From Phycisphaerae bacterium (GTDB lineage: Bacteria; Planctomycetota; Phycisphaerae; SM23-33): a DNA stretch of 64,000 bases. Positions 10,871 to 46,108 of this stretch are shown piece after piece. Position 1 is the first letter of the stretch. Each line of letters opens with the position of its first letter. The stretch lies in the NCBI GenBank assembly GCA_041946855.1, contig JBHGBE010000005.1:11108-75107 (forward strand), given 5' to 3'. The position numbers were made by a program, and so were the translations under genes. The notes under the pieces were generated by a model. It was given only the letters and a program-made list of their open reading frames with translations. It was not told where the DNA came from and ran no database searches.

Positions 10871-10926
10871 ACGGCGCTGACCTTCTGCCGTTGCCATCGG
10901 GCCCCGAAACCGTTAGGTATCAGCGG

Positions 10927-11622
10927 ATGCAACCCATCCATAAGGTTCAGGCCCTCATCCTCGACTTCGACGGCGTGGTGGTCGACAGCGAACCGATCCA
11001 CCTGGCGTGTTTCCGCGAGGTGCTCGCCGGCATCGGCGTGCCGCTGGCGACGGAGGACTACTACGCCAGATACGTGGGCTTCGACGATCACGATTGCTTC
11101 GCGGCCGTGCTGCGGAACAACGGCCGTGAGGCGGCTGAATCGCTCATCCGCGAGCTTGTGGCCCGGAAGACCGCGCTCGTCCAGCAAGCATATACGCGCT
11201 CGGTACGAGCGATGCCAGGCGCAGTGGAGCTGATTCGCGGGGCGTCAGAAGCGGGCGTGCCGACGGCCGTCTGCTCCGGAGGGCTTCGCAAGGAGATCGA
11301 GATTGCCGCCCGCGCGGCCGGCGTGGCGAAACACCTGTTGACGGTCGTCACGGCCGAGGATGTCAGACACGGCAAGCCCGATCCGGAGGGCTACCGCCTG
11401 GCTCTGGCGAGGCTGTGCGCCATTACGGGCAAGGCCCTCACGCCGGGGCGATGCGTTGTGGTCGAGGACGCCCCCGCCGGCATCCAGGCGGCCAAAACGG
11501 CCGGGATGAAGGTGCTGGCCGTTACAAGCTCTTACCCGGCCGGGGCGCTCAATCTGGCCGACAGGATCGTAGCCTCGTTGACAGACGTGTCCCTCGGATC
11601 GCTCGCGGGCCTCGCGGAATAG
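10927..11622 (+). CDS. HAD-superfamily hydrolase (beta-phosphoglucomutase-like)
   Basis: LILDFDGVVVDSE motif I. Class IA motifs II and III (S/T...K...D) are also present. Start placed at the inner Met MQPIHKV. Confidence 0.8.
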   Translation: MQPIHKVQALILDFDGVVVDSEPIHLACFREVLAGIGVPLATEDYYARYVGFDDHDCFAAVLRNNGREAAESLIRELVARKTALVQQAYTRSVRAMPGAVELIRGASEAGVPTAVCSGGLRKEIEIAARAAGVAKHLLTVVTAEDVRHGKPDPEGYRLALARLCAITGKALTPGRCVVVEDAPAGIQAAKTAGMKVLAVTSSYPAGALNLADRIVASLTDVSLGSLAGLAE

Positions 11623-34025: not shown

Positions 34026-34476
34026 GGCGGCGGCGGGCGGCAGGGCTTGCGCGGCGCAGCAGAGCAGCCACGTATCGTTCGTGTTGAAGGGCGGCGGGCA
34101 GAGCGCGGCGGGCGACGAGAATTTTTTTTCGCCTTTGGCCGGTGACAGTGGACTTGGGGCCGAAGCGGACCGTAATATGGAAGGCTGAAGACCGAGCGTG
34201 CAACGGCGCCTGTTGCGCGTCGGTCCCAAGGGTGCGGCAGTACAGTGCTGTCGTAGGTGTTCGGGCAGGTCGGGCCGCCTCCCGGAGAATGGACTGCGGA
34301 GAGCGGCATGGACAAGCTCGAGCGCACGGCCATTTCCACCAATCAGGCCAGCGGCGCCGGCTGTGTTTTGCGCCTTGGCCGCACGCTGTTCCGCGGCGCG
34401 ACGCCGCCGGCGGCCCGCCCGGCCGCGCGGGGCGCGGCGCGCGCCGTGGCCTGGGCCGCGGGGTAGGAGGTGGTCC

Positions 34477-36084
34477 GTGAAGATCACCAACATCCTGACC
34501 CCGGAGACTGTCATCACGGGCCTATCGGCGGCCAGCCGGGATGAGGCAATCCGCGCGCTGATAGACCTCCTGGGCAAGTCCAGGTGCGTTGACGGCGAGA
34601 GGGCCGGGCTGGACGTCGCGGCCAGGGACCGAAGCGGCCTGACCCTCATGTCCATGCGGGGGCCGGTCGTGGCGGTTCCCCACGCCCGCACCAGCGCGTG
34701 CAACCAGTTGGTCATGGCGCTGGGAACATCGCCCGAGGGCGTGCCGTGGGACGGCCCCACCCGCGCGAACCTGGCCGTGCTCATCCTTTGCCCGCCCCAG
34801 GCGCACGCGCTGTACCTGCGGGTCCTGGGCCGCATCGCCCGGATGTTCGAGGCCAGGGACCTGCTCGAATCGATGCTTCGCGCCTCCACCGGCAGGGAGG
34901 TCATGGCCCTGCTGGCGGCGGCCGAGGAGCCGCTGGGCGAGATGGTCGCCGGCGACGGGCTCCCGACCTTCTGCGTCCTGGGCGCGGGCCATGGGGGCCT
35001 GGCGATGGCCGCCCATCTTGCCCTGAACGGGTGCAAGGTGAACGTCTTCAACAGGACCGACGCGCACATAGAACTGGTCCGCACAAGGGGCGGCATTGAC
35101 GCCGAGGGAGAGGTGAACGGATTCGCGACCCTCAATGTCGTCAGTTCCAACCCGGCGGAGGCAATAAATGATTGCGACGTGCTGATGGCGGTCGTGCCGG
35201 CGACCGCGCATCGCGACATCGCCAGGATCATCGCCCCGCACATCAAGGACGGGCAGACCCTCGTTCTGAACCCGGGGCGGACCGGCGGGGCCCTGGAGGT
35301 CGCCAGGATCATACGCCAGGGCAATCCCAACGTCCGGCCGTATATAGCCGAGGCGCAGACGCTGCTCTACGCCGCCCGCGCGACGAACCCCGGCCAGGTG
35401 CGGGTGTTCGGGGTCAAGAACTCCGTGCCGCTGGCGACGCTGCCGGCGTACAGCGTCACCGACGTGCTGCCCGTCATTCGCAAGGCCCTGCCGCAGTTCG
35501 TCCCCGGCGACAACGTGCTGAAGACCAGCCTGGACAATATCGGCGCGGTCTTCCATCCCGCCATCACCATCCTCAACGCCGCCCGCATAGAGGACACGCA
35601 CGGCGACTTCGAGTACTACGTGGAGGGGGTCACGCCCGCGGTGGCGAGGGTCCTGGAGGAGATCGACAAGGAGCGGGTGGCCGTGGCCGCCGCGCTGGGC
35701 ATCCGCGCCAACACGGCCCGCGAATGGCTGTACCTCGCGTACGACGCGCCCGGCAAGACGCTCCTCGACGCCATGAGGGCCAACGCCGGGTACGCGGGCA
35801 TCAAGGCCCCCGGCACCATGGAGCACAGGTACATCTCGGAGGATGTGCCCTGTAGCCTCGTGCCCATAGCGTCCATAGGCGAGATGCTTGGCGTCCGCAC
35901 GCCGACTATCCGCTCGATCATCCGCCTTGCCTCCGCGATGCACGGCGTGGACTACTGGGCCGAGGGCAGGACGGTGGAGCGGCTGGGGATCAACGGGATG
36001 TCCGTAAAGGAGATTCGTTTCCTGGTGGTGGGGGCTGAAGGGGCCGCCGAGCCGCCGGCGCCGGCGCCTCCCGCGGAAGAATGA
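34477..36084 (+). CDS. PTS EIIA(Ntr)-type domain fused to an NAD(P)-binding opine-dehydrogenase-like domain
   Basis: GTG start with an AGGAGG ribosome-binding site. ITNILTPETVITGL...VVAVPHARTS (EIIA-2 with phosphorylatable His). FCVLGAGHGGLAMAAHLALNGCKV Rossmann fold. Octopine/nopaline-dehydrogenase-like C-terminal helical domain. Confidence 0.65.
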   Translation: MKITNILTPETVITGLSAASRDEAIRALIDLLGKSRCVDGERAGLDVAARDRSGLTLMSMRGPVVAVPHARTSACNQLVMALGTSPEGVPWDGPTRANLAVLILCPPQAHALYLRVLGRIARMFEARDLLESMLRASTGREVMALLAAAEEPLGEMVAGDGLPTFCVLGAGHGGLAMAAHLALNGCKVNVFNRTDAHIELVRTRGGIDAEGEVNGFATLNVVSSNPAEAINDCDVLMAVVPATAHRDIARIIAPHIKDGQTLVLNPGRTGGALEVARIIRQGNPNVRPYIAEAQTLLYAARATNPGQVRVFGVKNSVPLATLPAYSVTDVLPVIRKALPQFVPGDNVLKTSLDNIGAVFHPAITILNAARIEDTHGDFEYYVEGVTPAVARVLEEIDKERVAVAAALGIRANTAREWLYLAYDAPGKTLLDAMRANAGYAGIKAPGTMEHRYISEDVPCSLVPIASIGEMLGVRTPTIRSIIRLASAMHGVDYWAEGRTVERLGINGMSVKEIRFLVVGAEGAAEPPAPAPPAEE

Positions 36085-41358: not shown

Positions 41359-41389
41359 GTTGACGCGGCTGTGGCACGCTCTATAATTT
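41359..41389 (+). promoter_or_regulatory. Strong sigma-70-like promoter TTGACG-N16-TATAAT
   Basis: Seen directly. About 470 nt upstream of nusA. Confidence 0.5.
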
Positions 41390-41747
41390 AGCGTCAACTT
41401 GTGTACGGACTGTTTGTCGCCTGCCATGCCCAGGAGGCAACGGGCTGTGTGCAGGCGGCACTGTTTATTCGTGCGGACGGCAGTTGGCTGTTTGAGAGCG
41501 GCTAATGTTGTCGTTTTTTGCCAAAGAGAACTTTTCAGGCCGGGAGCGAACGAGTATGCGCCCCAGCAAGGTCCACGCCGGTGTTACGGCTTAGGCCCAT
41601 GGCGGTTGTGCCCCGCCGGGCCTGCGGAGGAACAGGTCCGCCCGGATAGTTTGCGGGGCGGCGCGCCATCGGCGCCGGAGGCGGTGAGCCAAACCGCCGA
41701 CGGCCGGCGGCACGCCCCCTGACAAGGCGAGGCTTGCGGCTTGAAAG

Positions 41748-41781
41748 TGGGCAGAGGCGACCCACTTTTTTTGTCGCCTTC
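41748..41781 (+). terminator. Rho-independent terminator (AGTGGG-cagaggcga-CCCACT + TTTTTTT)
   Basis: Stem-loop followed by a T7 run, seen directly. Located about 55 nt upstream of nusA. Confidence 0.6.
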
Positions 41782-41833
41782 GCGGCGGCCCCGGCGGCGC
41801 CGCGGGATACGGACATAAGAATAAGGGAAAAGA

Positions 41834-43270
41834 ATGAACCAGGAACTTCTACGCATAGTCGAAGGACTGGCCCGGGACCGCAACATCGATGCGGAAACGC
41901 TGTTCGAGGACCTTGAGGCCGCGATAATCTCGGCCATTCGCAAGGCCAATCCGGGCACTGAGGACGTGGCCGCCAACGTCGATCGAAAGACGGGCGACAT
42001 CACCGCGTCGCTGAACGGCCAGCCCATCAGCCAGCGAGACCTGGGCCGCATAGCCGCACAGACGGCCAAGCAGGTGCTGATCCAGCGCGTTCGCGAGGCC
42101 GAGCGCGGCAGCATCTACGAGCAGTACCTGGAGTTGCGCGGCACGATCGTCACCGGCCGTGTCGCGCGGTGGGAGGGCGGCAGCCTGATCGTTGACCTGG
42201 GACGGGTGGAGGCCATCCTGCCCAAGAGCGAGCAGATCCCCGGCGAGCAGGCCCAGCCGGAGGAGCGAGTCCGCGCGATGGTCCTGGAGGTCAAGGAAAG
42301 CCCAAGCCAGGTGCGGATCATCCTGTCGCGGACGCACCCGGACTTCATCAGGGCGCTGTTCGAGCTGGAAGTGCCCGAGGTGGCCGAGAAGATCATCGAG
42401 ATCAAGGCCCTCGCCCGCGAGGCGGGATACCGCACGAAGGTGGCCGTCACGAGCCTTGACCCGAAGGTGGACGCGGTGGGCGCGTGCGTGGGCATCCGCG
42501 GCAGCCGGATCAAGAACATCGTCGATGAGCTGGGCGGCGAGAAGATCGACATCGTCAGGTGGAACGACTCGTCCAAGATACTCATCGCCAACGCGCTCAA
42601 GCCGGCGGAGGTCGCCGAGATCGCACTGTGCTTCGAGCTCGGGCGGGCGACGGTGGTGGTGACGGATGACCAGCTTTCGCTGGCCATCGGGAAGCGCGGG
42701 CAGAACGTCCGCCTGGCTGCCCGGCTGACCGGCTGGGACATCGACATACTGACGCCCAACGAGTTCAACGCGGGCCTCGATACGCTGGAGAAGGCGCTGC
42801 GGTCGGTCGAGGGCGTGGAGTCGACAGTGGTGGACCAGATCGTGGCGATGGGCATGGTGAACGTGCTGGACGTGGAAGAGGTCGGCCCCGATCCGCTGGT
42901 CAACGAGCTGAACATGGACCGCACGCTGGCCCAGAAGATCGTGGTCCGCTGCGCCGAGGAGGCCAAGCGCGTTGCCGCGGAGCAGCAGGCCAACAAGGAA
43001 AAGAAGGCCGCCGCGGCGCAGGCTCCCGCACAGGCCCCCGTGCCGGCTGAGGCGCCGGCCGCTCCGGCCCCGGCAGAGGGCGCAGCCGCCGTTGCGCCGA
43101 CGGAGGGCGCAGCGCCGGCCGCGGCGCCGCCCGAAAACCAGCCTCCGCCCGCTGCTCCGGTGGAAGGCTCGCAGCCGCCTCCGCCGGCGGAGGTTGCCCC
43201 TGGCGATGCGCCAACCCAACCGCCCGCCGCCACGCCGGCCCAGGATGCGCCGGCCGATACGCGGACGTGA
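41834..43270 (+). CDS. nusA: Transcription termination/antitermination factor NusA
   Basis: N-terminal domain, S1 and KH domains. Acidic/Pro-Ala-rich C-terminal extension. Confidence 0.9.
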   Translation: MNQELLRIVEGLARDRNIDAETLFEDLEAAIISAIRKANPGTEDVAANVDRKTGDITASLNGQPISQRDLGRIAAQTAKQVLIQRVREAERGSIYEQYLELRGTIVTGRVARWEGGSLIVDLGRVEAILPKSEQIPGEQAQPEERVRAMVLEVKESPSQVRIILSRTHPDFIRALFELEVPEVAEKIIEIKALAREAGYRTKVAVTSLDPKVDAVGACVGIRGSRIKNIVDELGGEKIDIVRWNDSSKILIANALKPAEVAEIALCFELGRATVVVTDDQLSLAIGKRGQNVRLAARLTGWDIDILTPNEFNAGLDTLEKALRSVEGVESTVVDQIVAMGMVNVLDVEEVGPDPLVNELNMDRTLAQKIVVRCAEEAKRVAAEQQANKEKKAAAAQAPAQAPVPAEAPAAPAPAEGAAAVAPTEGAAPAAAPPENQPPPAAPVEGSQPPPPAEVAPGDAPTQPPAATPAQDAPADTRT

Positions 43271-43315: not shown

Positions 43316-46108
43316 TTGATAGATGAGTGGTTGCCGGGAGGTTTTTCCTTGGCAAAGTTACGTATATCTGATCTGGCCAAAGAGCTCGGCGTGATGAGCA
43401 AGACGGTGCTGGCCAAGTGCCGCGCCGAGGGGATCGACGTCAAGAACCACATGGCCACGGTGTCGGCCGGCCTGGAGGCCACGATCCGCGAGTGGTTCGC
43501 GGAGGGCGGCCTCAAGACAGCCGTCGAGACCACCAAGCACGTTGACCTGGCCAAGGAGCATGAGAAGGCCAGGAAGCAGCGCCGCAAGGGCAAGAAGGAA
43601 GAGCCTGCCGCCGCGCCCGCTGCCGCTGATGTGGCAGCCGTGGCCGTCGAAGAGGCCCCGCCCGTTGAGAAGGTTCCAGTTGTTGAAGCACCGCCGGTCG
43701 AAGAGGTCCCCGCGCCGACGGCCGCGCCTGTCGCGCCGCCGGCCGAAGTCGCCAAGCCCACGGCAGCCCCCGCCGAACCAGCGCCGCCTGCTGCCCCTGC
43801 GCAGCCCGCTCAAGTCGCGGCGAGCGTCGAGCCGCCGCCGGCCGCGCCGGCCAAGCCCGCGCCGCCCGCCGCCCCTGTTCAGCCGGCGGCCGCGACGCCT
43901 CCGGCGGCCGAGCCCCCCAAGCCGGCGCCGCCGAAGGTTCCCATCAAGCCGGCCGGACCGCAACTTGTCCCAAGGCCGGCTCGTCTTCAGGGGCCGCGGG
44001 TCGTCCGCGTGGAAAGGCCCGACTACGTCCAGGCCCCGCGCCGCAGGCCGCCCGCGGCTCCGGCCGCGCCCGAGCCGGCTGCGCCGACGGGCGCCGGCAG
44101 AAGGGGCAGGAAGCCGGCCGTCGTCGTCGAGGAAGAGGAGGAAGGCGCCGGCAAGAAGGGCGCCGCCAAGAAGCGCAGCCCGCGCCGCCGTGGCGGCCGC
44201 AGCGCCGACAGCGGCGAGGTCATCAAGGAATGGCGCGACCAGGACTTGCAGGAGCGCACCGAGCGGATCACGGCCGCGACAGGCGGCCTTCGCCGCCACC
44301 GCGCCGCCGTCACGCAAAAATCCGCCGAGGGCGGCCCGGCCGTCAAGAGCCCGCAGGTCGAGGTCGAGGAGCCCATCACGATAAAGAACCTGTCGGCCGC
44401 CTCAGGCATCAAGGCCGGCGAGTTCATTCGCAAGCTGATGGACCAGGGCACGATGGCGACCGTCAACCAGGTCATCTCGCGCGAGACCGCCGAGTCGCTC
44501 CTGATCGACTACAACGTCGAGCTGATCGTCAAGCGGGCCAGGACCGCCGAGGAGGAGCTGCTCGAGGAGATCCGGAATCGCCCCAAGGGCCCGCTGACCA
44601 CCCGGGCGCCGGTGGTCACGTTCCTGGGCCACGTGGACCACGGCAAGACGTCGCTGTTGGACCGGATCCGCCAGGCCCGCGTGGCCGAGGGCGAGGCCGG
44701 CGGCATCACGCAGCACATCGGCGCGTACCGGTTCGACCGCGGCAAGAGCCACGTGGTCTTCCTTGACACGCCCGGGCACGAGGCGTTCACGGCCATGCGT
44801 GCCCGCGGCGCCAACATGACCGACGTGGTCGTGCTGGTCGTGGCCGCCGACGACGGCGTCATGCCCCAGACCGTCGAGGCCCTCAGCCACGCCAAGGCCG
44901 CCAACGTCCCGATCGTCGTGGCGCTCAACAAGATCGACCTGCCCAACGCCAACGAGCAGAAGGTGCTGGGGCAACTGGCCGAGCACGGCCTCCAGCCCCG
45001 CGAGTGGGGAGGCAACGTCGAGGTCATCCGCACCAGCGCCACCACCGGCCAGGGCATCGACGCGCTTGTCGAGACCCTCAGCCTGGAGGCGGAGCTGCTG
45101 GAGCTGAAGGCCGACAGCGCGGCCCCGGCCAGCGGGTTCGTGATCGAGAGCAAGATGGACAGCGGGCTGGGCGTGCTGGCCCGCCTGCTGGTCCGGGATG
45201 GAACGCTCAGGGCCGGCGACATCTTGCTGGCCGGCGCTGGCTACGGGCGGGTCCGCCTCATGGTCGACGACCGGGGCAGGCCCATCGGCGAGGCCGGGCC
45301 CTCCACGCCGGTCGAAGTGGCCGGGCTGGACGAGATCCCCGAGGCCGGCGACCGGTTCTACGTGCTGGACGACCTGGACAGGGCCCGCGCGGTGGCCGAA
45401 GACCGCCGCCAGAGGTCCAGGGCCGCCGACCTGGCGACCGTCCCCGAGCGCACGCTGGACGCCATGCTGAAGCGGATCGAGGCGGGCCAGGCGACCGAGC
45501 TGAACCTGATTATCAAGGCCGACGTGCAGGGCTCGATAGAGGCCATCACAGGCTCCATCGAGAAGCTGAGCACCGACGAGGTGCGCGTGAAGGTGCTCCA
45601 TGCGGCCGTCGGCGGCATTACGGCCGGCGACGTGGCCCTGGCCGAGGCGTCCGACGCCCTCATCATCGGTTTCAACGCCGTGCCCGACGCGGCCGCGAGG
45701 CAGTTGGCCGAGGCCGCCGGCGTCGATATCCGGCTCTACCGGATCATCTACGACATCATCGAGGACATCCGCAAGGCCCTGGAAGAAGGCCTGGCGCCGG
45801 AAATCCGCATGGAGACGCTGGGGCGGGCGGAGGTCCGCCAGACGTTCAAGGTGTCGCGAGTCGGCACGATCGCCGGCTGCTACGTCACCGACGGCGTGGT
45901 CACGCGCAGCTCGAAGGTCCGCATCACGCGGAACAACGTGGTCGTCGAGGACGAGCGTACGCTGGAGAGCCTCAAGCGGTTCAAGGACGACGCCCGCGAG
46001 GTCCGGGCCGGGCTGGAGTGCGGCATCAAGATCGCCGGCTACGACGACATCAAGGAGGGCGACATACTGGAGTTCTACCAGCGGGTCGAGGTGACAAGGA
46101 AGCTGTAG
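43316..46108 (+). CDS. infB: Translation initiation factor IF-2
   Basis: [13 protein letters not shown]1 motif. [12 protein letters not shown]. Ala/Pro-rich N-terminal linker. The start could be a few codons downstream. Confidence 0.9.

Follow-up and report, generated by a model that had tools for sequence, protein, structure and literature searches.

The window, meaning the whole 64,000-nt stretch of DNA that was analysed, carries the genes for NusA and IF2 side by side on the plus strand. A promoter, a long leader, and an intrinsic terminator lie upstream of them. The window DNA is high-GC (the genome has roughly 65-70% GC), and the encoded NusA is 60-85% identical to NusA of Phycisphaerae (Planctomycetota) metagenome-assembled genomes. 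The genes and the main parts of the leader are listed here, together with one distant ORF that is referred to below.

10891-11622, plus strand: HAD-family hydrolase-like ORF with a DFDGVVVDSE motif, the site of a spurious RimP match
41360-41387, plus strand: sigma-70-type promoter (-35 box TTGACG at 41360-41365, N16, -10 box TATAAT at 41382-41387)
41394-41532, plus strand: 5' part of the leader, variable among relatives, with two strong hairpins in the window
41533-41654, plus strand: clade-specific conserved core of ~120 nt, defined by an nhmmer profile
41744-41772, plus strand: intrinsic terminator/attenuator of the rimP-leader type, AAAGUGGG-CAGAGGCGA-CCCACUUU within the U7 tract
41773-41833, plus strand: spacer to nusA with a conserved GUCGCC(UUC), a GC-rich hairpin (41782-41803), and the nusA Shine-Dalgarno sequence AAGGGA (41823-41828)
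41834-43270, plus strand: nusA (Pfam NusA_N, S1, and KH_5), encoding N-terminal, S1, and KH domains and a Pro/Ala-rich tail
43316-46108, plus strand: infB, encoding IF2 (Pfam IF-2, GTP_EFTU, and IF2_N), 45 nt 3' of nusA

The two proteins have low-complexity regions of some length. At the C-terminus of NusA, a Pro/Ala-rich tail of ~100 aa replaces the AR1/AR2 domains (42970-43270, plus strand). The N-terminal region of IF2 is long and rich in Pro, Ala, and Glu (43600-44300, plus strand). TTG at 43316 is the listed start of infB, and the true start may lie elsewhere.

The upstream neighbour of the leader is a divergent TPR/alpha-beta-hydrolase gene, and the ORF list and Pfam show no rimP in the ~600-nt intergenic space. 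The first-pass annotation of this DNA had stated that rimP is absent. This is true at this position of the window and in all distant relatives checked; no rimP was seen upstream of nusA in the distant relatives inspected. A tblastn search with RimP of E. coli against the window and 160 loci found nothing credible. The sole match elsewhere in the window (E = 0.16) falls within the HAD-family hydrolase-like ORF and is spurious.

The promoter matches the consensus at 11 of 12 positions. Between 40500 and 42500, the TTGACG-N16-TATAAT site is the only promoter-like site, against 0.3 expected from shuffled sequences, and transcription of the leader is predicted to start at ~41394. The terminator stem is formed by AAAGTGGG (41744-41751) and CCCACTTT (41761-41768), with a 9-nt loop and a T7 run at 41766-41772. 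The hairpin has a folding energy of -11.8 kcal/mol (z = -2.5). A terminator pattern scan missed it only because loops were limited to 8 nt. The motif occurs once in the 64-kb window, and 61 nt separate the end of the T run from the nusA ATG (41834). The promoter-to-terminator unit that had been annotated from the sequence alone is thus real, with a near-consensus promoter and an intrinsic terminator, while its coordinates had been placed a few bases off.

The loop of the terminator is complementary to the sequence behind it. GAGGCGAC (41754-41761, plus strand) can pair over 8 bp with GUCGCCUU (41773-41781), which lies directly 3' of the U tract. Relatives keep GUYG(CC) at this place, and the four inner pairs with the loop are 89% paired, with covariation not above that of shuffles. 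Such a hairpin could form only in read-through transcripts. The clamp GGCGAC/GUYGCC after the terminator was rejected as a conserved helix, its covariation being no higher than in shuffles.

Relatives were retrieved with the window NusA, giving 80 genome-contig loci and 80 metagenome-contig loci. An nhmmer profile was built from an alignment (A1) of the conserved block upstream of the terminator. It matched the window with E = 5e-18 and 49 loci in all. In each of the 49 Phycisphaerae loci, nusA follows the core directly and on the same strand, although the linkage to nusA could not fail by design, all 49 having been found through NusA. About 46 of them have the promoter and the terminator too. 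The equivalent promoter, TTGAC-N17-TATAAT, is situated 276-477 nt upstream of the terminator in ~46 relatives, and the unit from promoter to terminator is 276-477 nt long. The arrangement of promoter, core, and terminator is far beyond chance because it recurs upstream of nusA in 49 related loci; the comparison with related genomes that had been recommended earlier thus found the unit conserved. The 5' third of the unit varies in both sequence and length.

In 45 leaders, 98.9% pairing was found in the terminator stem, whose sequence hardly varies (GGG and CCC are invariant), and the surroundings diverge. The consensus of the relatives is AAGUGGG(C)...(GA)CCCACU7, with T6 to T9 as the run. In ~30 genome loci the same terminator, GAAAGUGGGC-loop-GACCCACUUUUUUUG, is found 27-125 nt before nusA. 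Equilibrium partition-function folding gave the terminator a predicted formation probability of ~1 in most leaders, including that of the window.

No second sigma-70-like promoter was detected in any of 46 leaders (46/46) when a relaxed pattern was applied from 10 nt after the transcription start to 130 nt past the terminator. The scan of the window likewise found no promoter-like site in the spacer 41773-41833 or before nusA. Without a second promoter, the essential genes nusA and infB would have to be transcribed through the terminator, and the terminator would thus be an attenuator. This conclusion is drawn from sequence, and promoters of other types are possible. The requirement for read-through, in turn, makes the unit a cis-acting leader or attenuator rather than a free-standing small RNA. 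The first-pass annotation had left these two options side by side. The leader or attenuator is the one that agrees with the lack of a second promoter in 46 leaders and with the signature of the rimP-leader; the independent small RNA is very unlikely.

Known RNA families do not account for the region. Rfam gave no match there, either at gathering thresholds with the whole window or at E <= 10 with sequences of 701 nt and 161 nt, beyond E <= 10 noise (Xist_exon4, ar45, gyrA, and hya). ARAGORN found no tRNA or tmRNA in the region. The earlier observation that hallmarks of RNase P, tmRNA, 6S, and SRP RNA are missing agrees with these results, as neither the Rfam models nor, for tmRNA, ARAGORN gave a match; the Rfam scan of the leader that had been suggested along with it was also negative. 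A likeness of the core to the SRP Alu domain or to a box C/D K-turn was considered (a GGUG loop, UAGGCCCA, and GUGAUGA...CUGA). The Rfam SRP models have no match, and CUGA of the supposed K-turn pairs with UCAG in helix H1, so both readings were rejected.

The terminator belongs to a known class. Naville & Gautheret (2010, PMC2965389) described the rimP-leader as more widespread than any other transcription attenuator. In that description, the first gene of rimP-nusA-infB is preceded at 4-130 nt by a terminator, the GGGc(...)gCCC of its stem is conserved to an unusual degree, a U stretch comes next, and no antiterminator is visible, which implies a protein effector. Recognition of the hairpin by NusA was proposed there, the repression of the E. 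coli operon by NusA having been shown 25 years earlier (PMC2965389). No larger conserved element was reported in that paper, and the accessible part of its supplements lists no planctomycete rimP-leader.

The window terminator is similar to this class in several respects. It occupies the 5' UTR of the operon's first gene, at a distance (61 nt) inside the range of 4-130 nt. Its 5' arm is G-rich and its 3' arm C-rich, with GGGC...CCC, and a U stretch follows. The stem is unusually conserved, and no antiterminator is evident in folding predictions, which are weak for proving absence. The second hairpin of the t1/t2 pair between metY and rimP of E. coli, UGGGCU-UUAG-GCCCU7, resembles the GUGGGC-...-GACCCACU7 of the window. 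There are also differences. C follows GGG in most of the 45 leaders, but the 3' arm of the window reads aCCC instead of gCCC, so that GUGGGC(AGAGGCG)ACCCAC is not a letter-perfect match. The window terminator directly precedes nusA, without rimP or metY. The stem AAGUGGG/CCCACUU encloses a 9-nt loop whose sequence is conserved, and ~250 nt of lineage-specific conserved leader with a short ORF lie upstream.

The Rfam family RF01770, which consists of two tandem gammaproteobacterial terminators, has a gathering threshold of 47 bits and scores 102 bits on the metY-rimP spacer of E. coli used as a control. The window has no match to it even at E <= 10. This silence says little and does not count against membership in the broader class, because the model is specific to Gammaproteobacteria.

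In B. subtilis, NusA-stimulated termination in its own leader constitutes autoregulation, according to PMC12288461 (citing Mondal 2016). The leader of B. subtilis nusA (ylxS/rimP-nusA) is ~180 nt long (PMC2965389). The resemblance lies in a long 5' leader and in an intrinsic terminator whose efficiency sets the expression of the operon, and the mechanism proposed below is the same. The sequences are unrelated, the dependence of the window leader on NusA is suggested by analogy, and the Phycisphaerae leader is about two times longer, with a conserved short ORF and core. According to PMC1865079, the infC-rpmI-rplT leader of B. subtilis is regulated by an operon product, through L20-dependent transcription attenuation. 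It resembles the window in its ~200-nt leader, its translation-factor operon, and its long-range pairing upstream of the terminator; it differs in operon and effector and in having a defined antiterminator/terminator alternative, none of which was found in the window.

It is probable that the region is the 5' leader of nusA-infB with an attenuator of the rimP-leader type, most likely under feedback by NusA. Transcription would begin at the consensus promoter (~41394), and RNA polymerase would reach the sequence-conserved intrinsic terminator 61 nt before nusA. NusA and IF2 would be expressed only from read-through transcripts. When NusA is abundant, it would stimulate termination at the modest hairpin, and when NusA is scarce, more polymerases would read through. 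The mechanism is most likely the negative feedback by NusA that operates in E. coli and B. subtilis. The analysis shows the layout of the leader, how it is conserved, and that read-through is needed; the part played by NusA is inferred. The presence of the terminator without rimP supports recognition of the hairpin by a product of the operon, most plausibly NusA, not RimP. In our reading, a hairpin that is modest for such GC content (-11.8 kcal/mol with a 9-nt loop) fits a factor-assisted terminator. It may also be a strong terminator, because the U tract is perfect and the predicted formation probability is close to 1; nusA could then be expressed from a non-canonical promoter that escaped recognition. 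The core and the short ORF would probably tune the termination decision, for example, through pausing, folding, or ribosome loading. The ~250 nt of conserved sequence, structure, and short ORF are neither needed nor explained by a simple model of NusA feedback.

The plus strand of the leader (41394-41781) folds better than shuffled sequences (z = -3.5), and the minus strand does not (z = -1.5). The consensus of the core is UCAGGCCGGGAG..GUGA..GCCUGACCAGG.UCCAAGCCGGUG....GGC.UAGGCCCA...CGGCUUCGCC...GG.CCRCCCGG. The smaller features of the leader are as follows.

41473-41520, plus strand: second terminator-like hairpin (-19.6 kcal/mol, z = -2.7), followed by U6 (GUUUUUUG)
41542-41546, plus strand: Shine-Dalgarno-like GGGAG, with 9 nt between it and the short ORF
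41556-41594, plus strand: short upstream ORF, ATG to TAG, 12 codons (MRPSKVHAGVTA*), a candidate leader peptide
41572-41581, plus strand: counterpart of the 5' strand of helix P1, UCCACGCCGG, inside the short ORF
41610-41659, plus strand: hairpin C, with outer GCCCCGC/GCGGGGC, inner CCGGG/CCCGG and CCUG/CAGG, and apical loop CGGAGGAA
41736-41744, plus strand: counterpart of the 3' strand of helix P1, GCGGCUUGA, abutting the terminator

The hairpin at 41473-41520 was rejected as a conserved tandem terminator, since no more than 4 of 47 leaders have a counterpart. Either chance or an additional, strain-specific attenuator may account for it.

Helices were tested singly on column shuffles of a second alignment (A2), which joins the core to the terminator region of 45 leaders. 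Helix H1 (UCAGGC/GCCUGA) is 75.6% paired, and its covariation score was reached by 4 of 500 shuffles. In the long-range helix P1, UCCAAGCCG of the core is paired with CGGCUUGGA, which adjoins the terminator. It is 65% paired, and the observed covariation values were reached by 16-44 of 500 shuffles. In ~22 relatives, P1 consists of 7-10 contiguous pairs and ends 0-5 nt before the terminator; compensatory changes are seen in four leaders (L002, L026, L032, and L119). P1 is degenerate in the window, where 41572-41581 and 41736-41744 have two mismatches. The covariation in these two core helices, as read from the alignment, is suggestive.

Hairpin C recurs at the same position in relatives with differing stem sequences. 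Of 44 sequences, 21 have its centre inside a single span of 7 nt, compared with 10.6 +/- 1.6 after shuffling. The terminator was all that RNAalifold recovered from alignments made with MAFFT or hmmalign, and hairpin C was not recovered with MAFFT. A scan for column compatibility showed many competing GC-rich pairings. For the proximal helix B (AAGCCGG/CCGGCUU) and the UAAGCC/GGCUU mini-hairpin, covariation is no higher than in shuffles, and neither was retained. Given the caveats of the shuffle controls, the fold of the leader is suggested rather than established.

Equilibrium folding, which is weak for proving absence, found no conserved antiterminator or alternative pairing with either arm of the terminator. 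In leaders where the terminator is out-competed, the competing partners are heterogeneous across leaders. The probability of the terminator did not fall when the ORF region or the 5' strand of P1 was forced to be single-stranded. Two candidate antiterminators were rejected. Pairing of GCCCA in the core with UGGGC of the terminator is broken without compensation where the core reads GGCCA, and it is not testable by covariation because both motifs are nearly invariant. Pairing of the 3' strand of P1 with the terminator loop always includes a G-G mismatch, and its variants are not compensated. The absence of a conserved antiterminator in these predictions is consistent with a protein-assisted attenuator.

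The first-pass annotation had found no credible ORF in the unit. This is correct for the only ORF it considered (41399..41722, TTG start, 107 aa), which was rejected as a gene because it has no Pfam match and its 5' half lies in non-conserved sequence. The statement has to be qualified for the 12-codon ORF at 41556-41594, which is preceded by a Shine-Dalgarno-like sequence and conserved in position. Within the GGGAG motif, G, A, and G are at least 90% conserved. With a strict filter, 35 of 49 relatives have such an ORF of up to 20 codons in the same frame, against 0 and 5 in the other frames. By manual inspection, a short ORF of 8-15 codons with this motif is found in ~43 of 48 relatives, often starting with GUG, and three leaders with a frameshift have a new stop nearby. 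GGGAG is predicted to pair with CGCCCC (41559-41564) in the window and to lie in an internal loop of H1 in most relatives. There is no 3-nt periodicity of conservation in the short ORF, the peptide sequence is not conserved, and there are no runs of codons. Without the periodicity, if the short ORF matters, it is its translation that matters and not the peptide.

The short ORF raises the possibility that the attenuator senses translation. Ribosome loading on the ORF would decide the fold of the leader, and translation-initiation capacity (IF2) would feed back on transcription of nusA-infB. The retention of GGGAG, a start codon, and a stop 8-15 codons further on in ~43 of 48 relatives, including the three frameshift cases, agrees with this, and a non-conserved peptide is expected if only the act of translation matters. 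The 5' strand of P1 is within the ORF, and the 3' strand is 0-5 nt from the terminator in ~22 relatives and shows compensatory changes; masking the ORF region raises the predicted terminator probability in ~8 leaders. However, masking leaves predicted terminator formation unchanged in most leaders, the window included, and the ORF stops ~150 nt short of the terminator. The competing pairings are heterogeneous and include no conserved antiterminator, the covariation of P1 is only suggestive (16-44 of 500 shuffles), and P1 is degenerate in the window. Conservation of the ORF is at the level of RNA, and GGGAG, GUGA, and UAR could therefore be structural. Sensing of translation is unlikely. Attenuators of the trp/his type, governed by a leader peptide, also have a short ORF with a Shine-Dalgarno sequence upstream of a terminator; they differ from the window leader, which shows no conserved antiterminator and no regulatory codons and in which the ORF ends ~150 nt away.

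The core closed by P1 might instead be a sensor domain that binds a ligand or a protein other than NusA and controls read-through. This, too, is doubtful. Motifs that appear single-stranded are invariant in the core (GGUG, GCCCA, and GGNCCRCCCGG), H1 and hairpin C have some support from covariation or position, a P1-like helix lies immediately 5' of the terminator, and the plus strand is more stable than shuffles. But no Rfam family matches, the structure is recovered inconsistently (RNAalifold finds the terminator only), about half of the members, the window among them, lack P1 or have a degenerate one, and no alternative pairing connects the domain with the terminator. The element is known upstream of one operon only, a distribution more often seen with autoregulation by an operon product.

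A combination of inputs was also considered. Initiation on the short ORF, whose codons 7-10 form the 5' strand of P1, would determine whether P1 forms beside the terminator, and transcription of the nusA-infB operon would respond both to translation-initiation capacity and to NusA. We regard this as quite doubtful. If true, it would be a two-input attenuator (a transcription factor and translation initiation) of a kind not described for this universally conserved operon.

An independent small RNA gene of ~380 nt that merely neighbours nusA is very unlikely: its strong promoter and complete U7 terminator would suit such a gene, and termination would leave a discrete structured RNA that would accumulate and could additionally act in trans, but in every one of the 49 loci sampled through NusA the element immediately precedes nusA in the same orientation, nusA has no promoter downstream of it, its 5' third is not conserved, its terminator is of the class known as the attenuator of the nusA operon, and no known sRNA, RNase P, tmRNA, 6S, or SRP RNA matches.

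NusA feedback on the nusA-infB leader is thus retained as the most likely explanation. If it applies alone, the leader is one more ordinary though well-documented case of an established regulatory element. Its terminator is of a described class; the conserved core, the short ORF, and the planctomycete setting without rimP have not been described. NusA and IF2 belong to the core machinery of transcription and translation, and how their operon is controlled has hardly been studied beyond Proteobacteria and Firmicutes. With this locus, the range of the sequence-conserved rimP-leader terminator reaches Planctomycetota, including operons that lack rimP. The core and the short ORF suggest a second input layered on an ancient attenuator in this lineage. 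The ~50 natural sequence variants of the leader can be used for designing experiments.

The core profile gave no match in loci of the Sedimentisphaerales type or the Phycisphaerales type. Other orders of Phycisphaerae have their own equally sequence-conserved terminators before nusA (L030-L080; for example, L037 at 2936-2971, and L055). The Sedimentisphaerales-type terminator is GAAGUGGAAAC-loop-GUUUCCACU8, and the Phycisphaerales-type terminator is CCACG...CGUGGU6. The terminator of L055 is ~110 nt before nusA. AAGUGG/CCACUU is common to the window terminator and the terminators of the other orders.

The only Rfam match of the window is located at a distance from the leader. It is the nhaA-I RNA (RF03057) at 34230-34283 on the plus strand, with 47 bits against a gathering score of 37, and a long plus-strand ORF ending at 36084 comes after it. 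The nhaA-I RNA is a candidate Na+ riboswitch.
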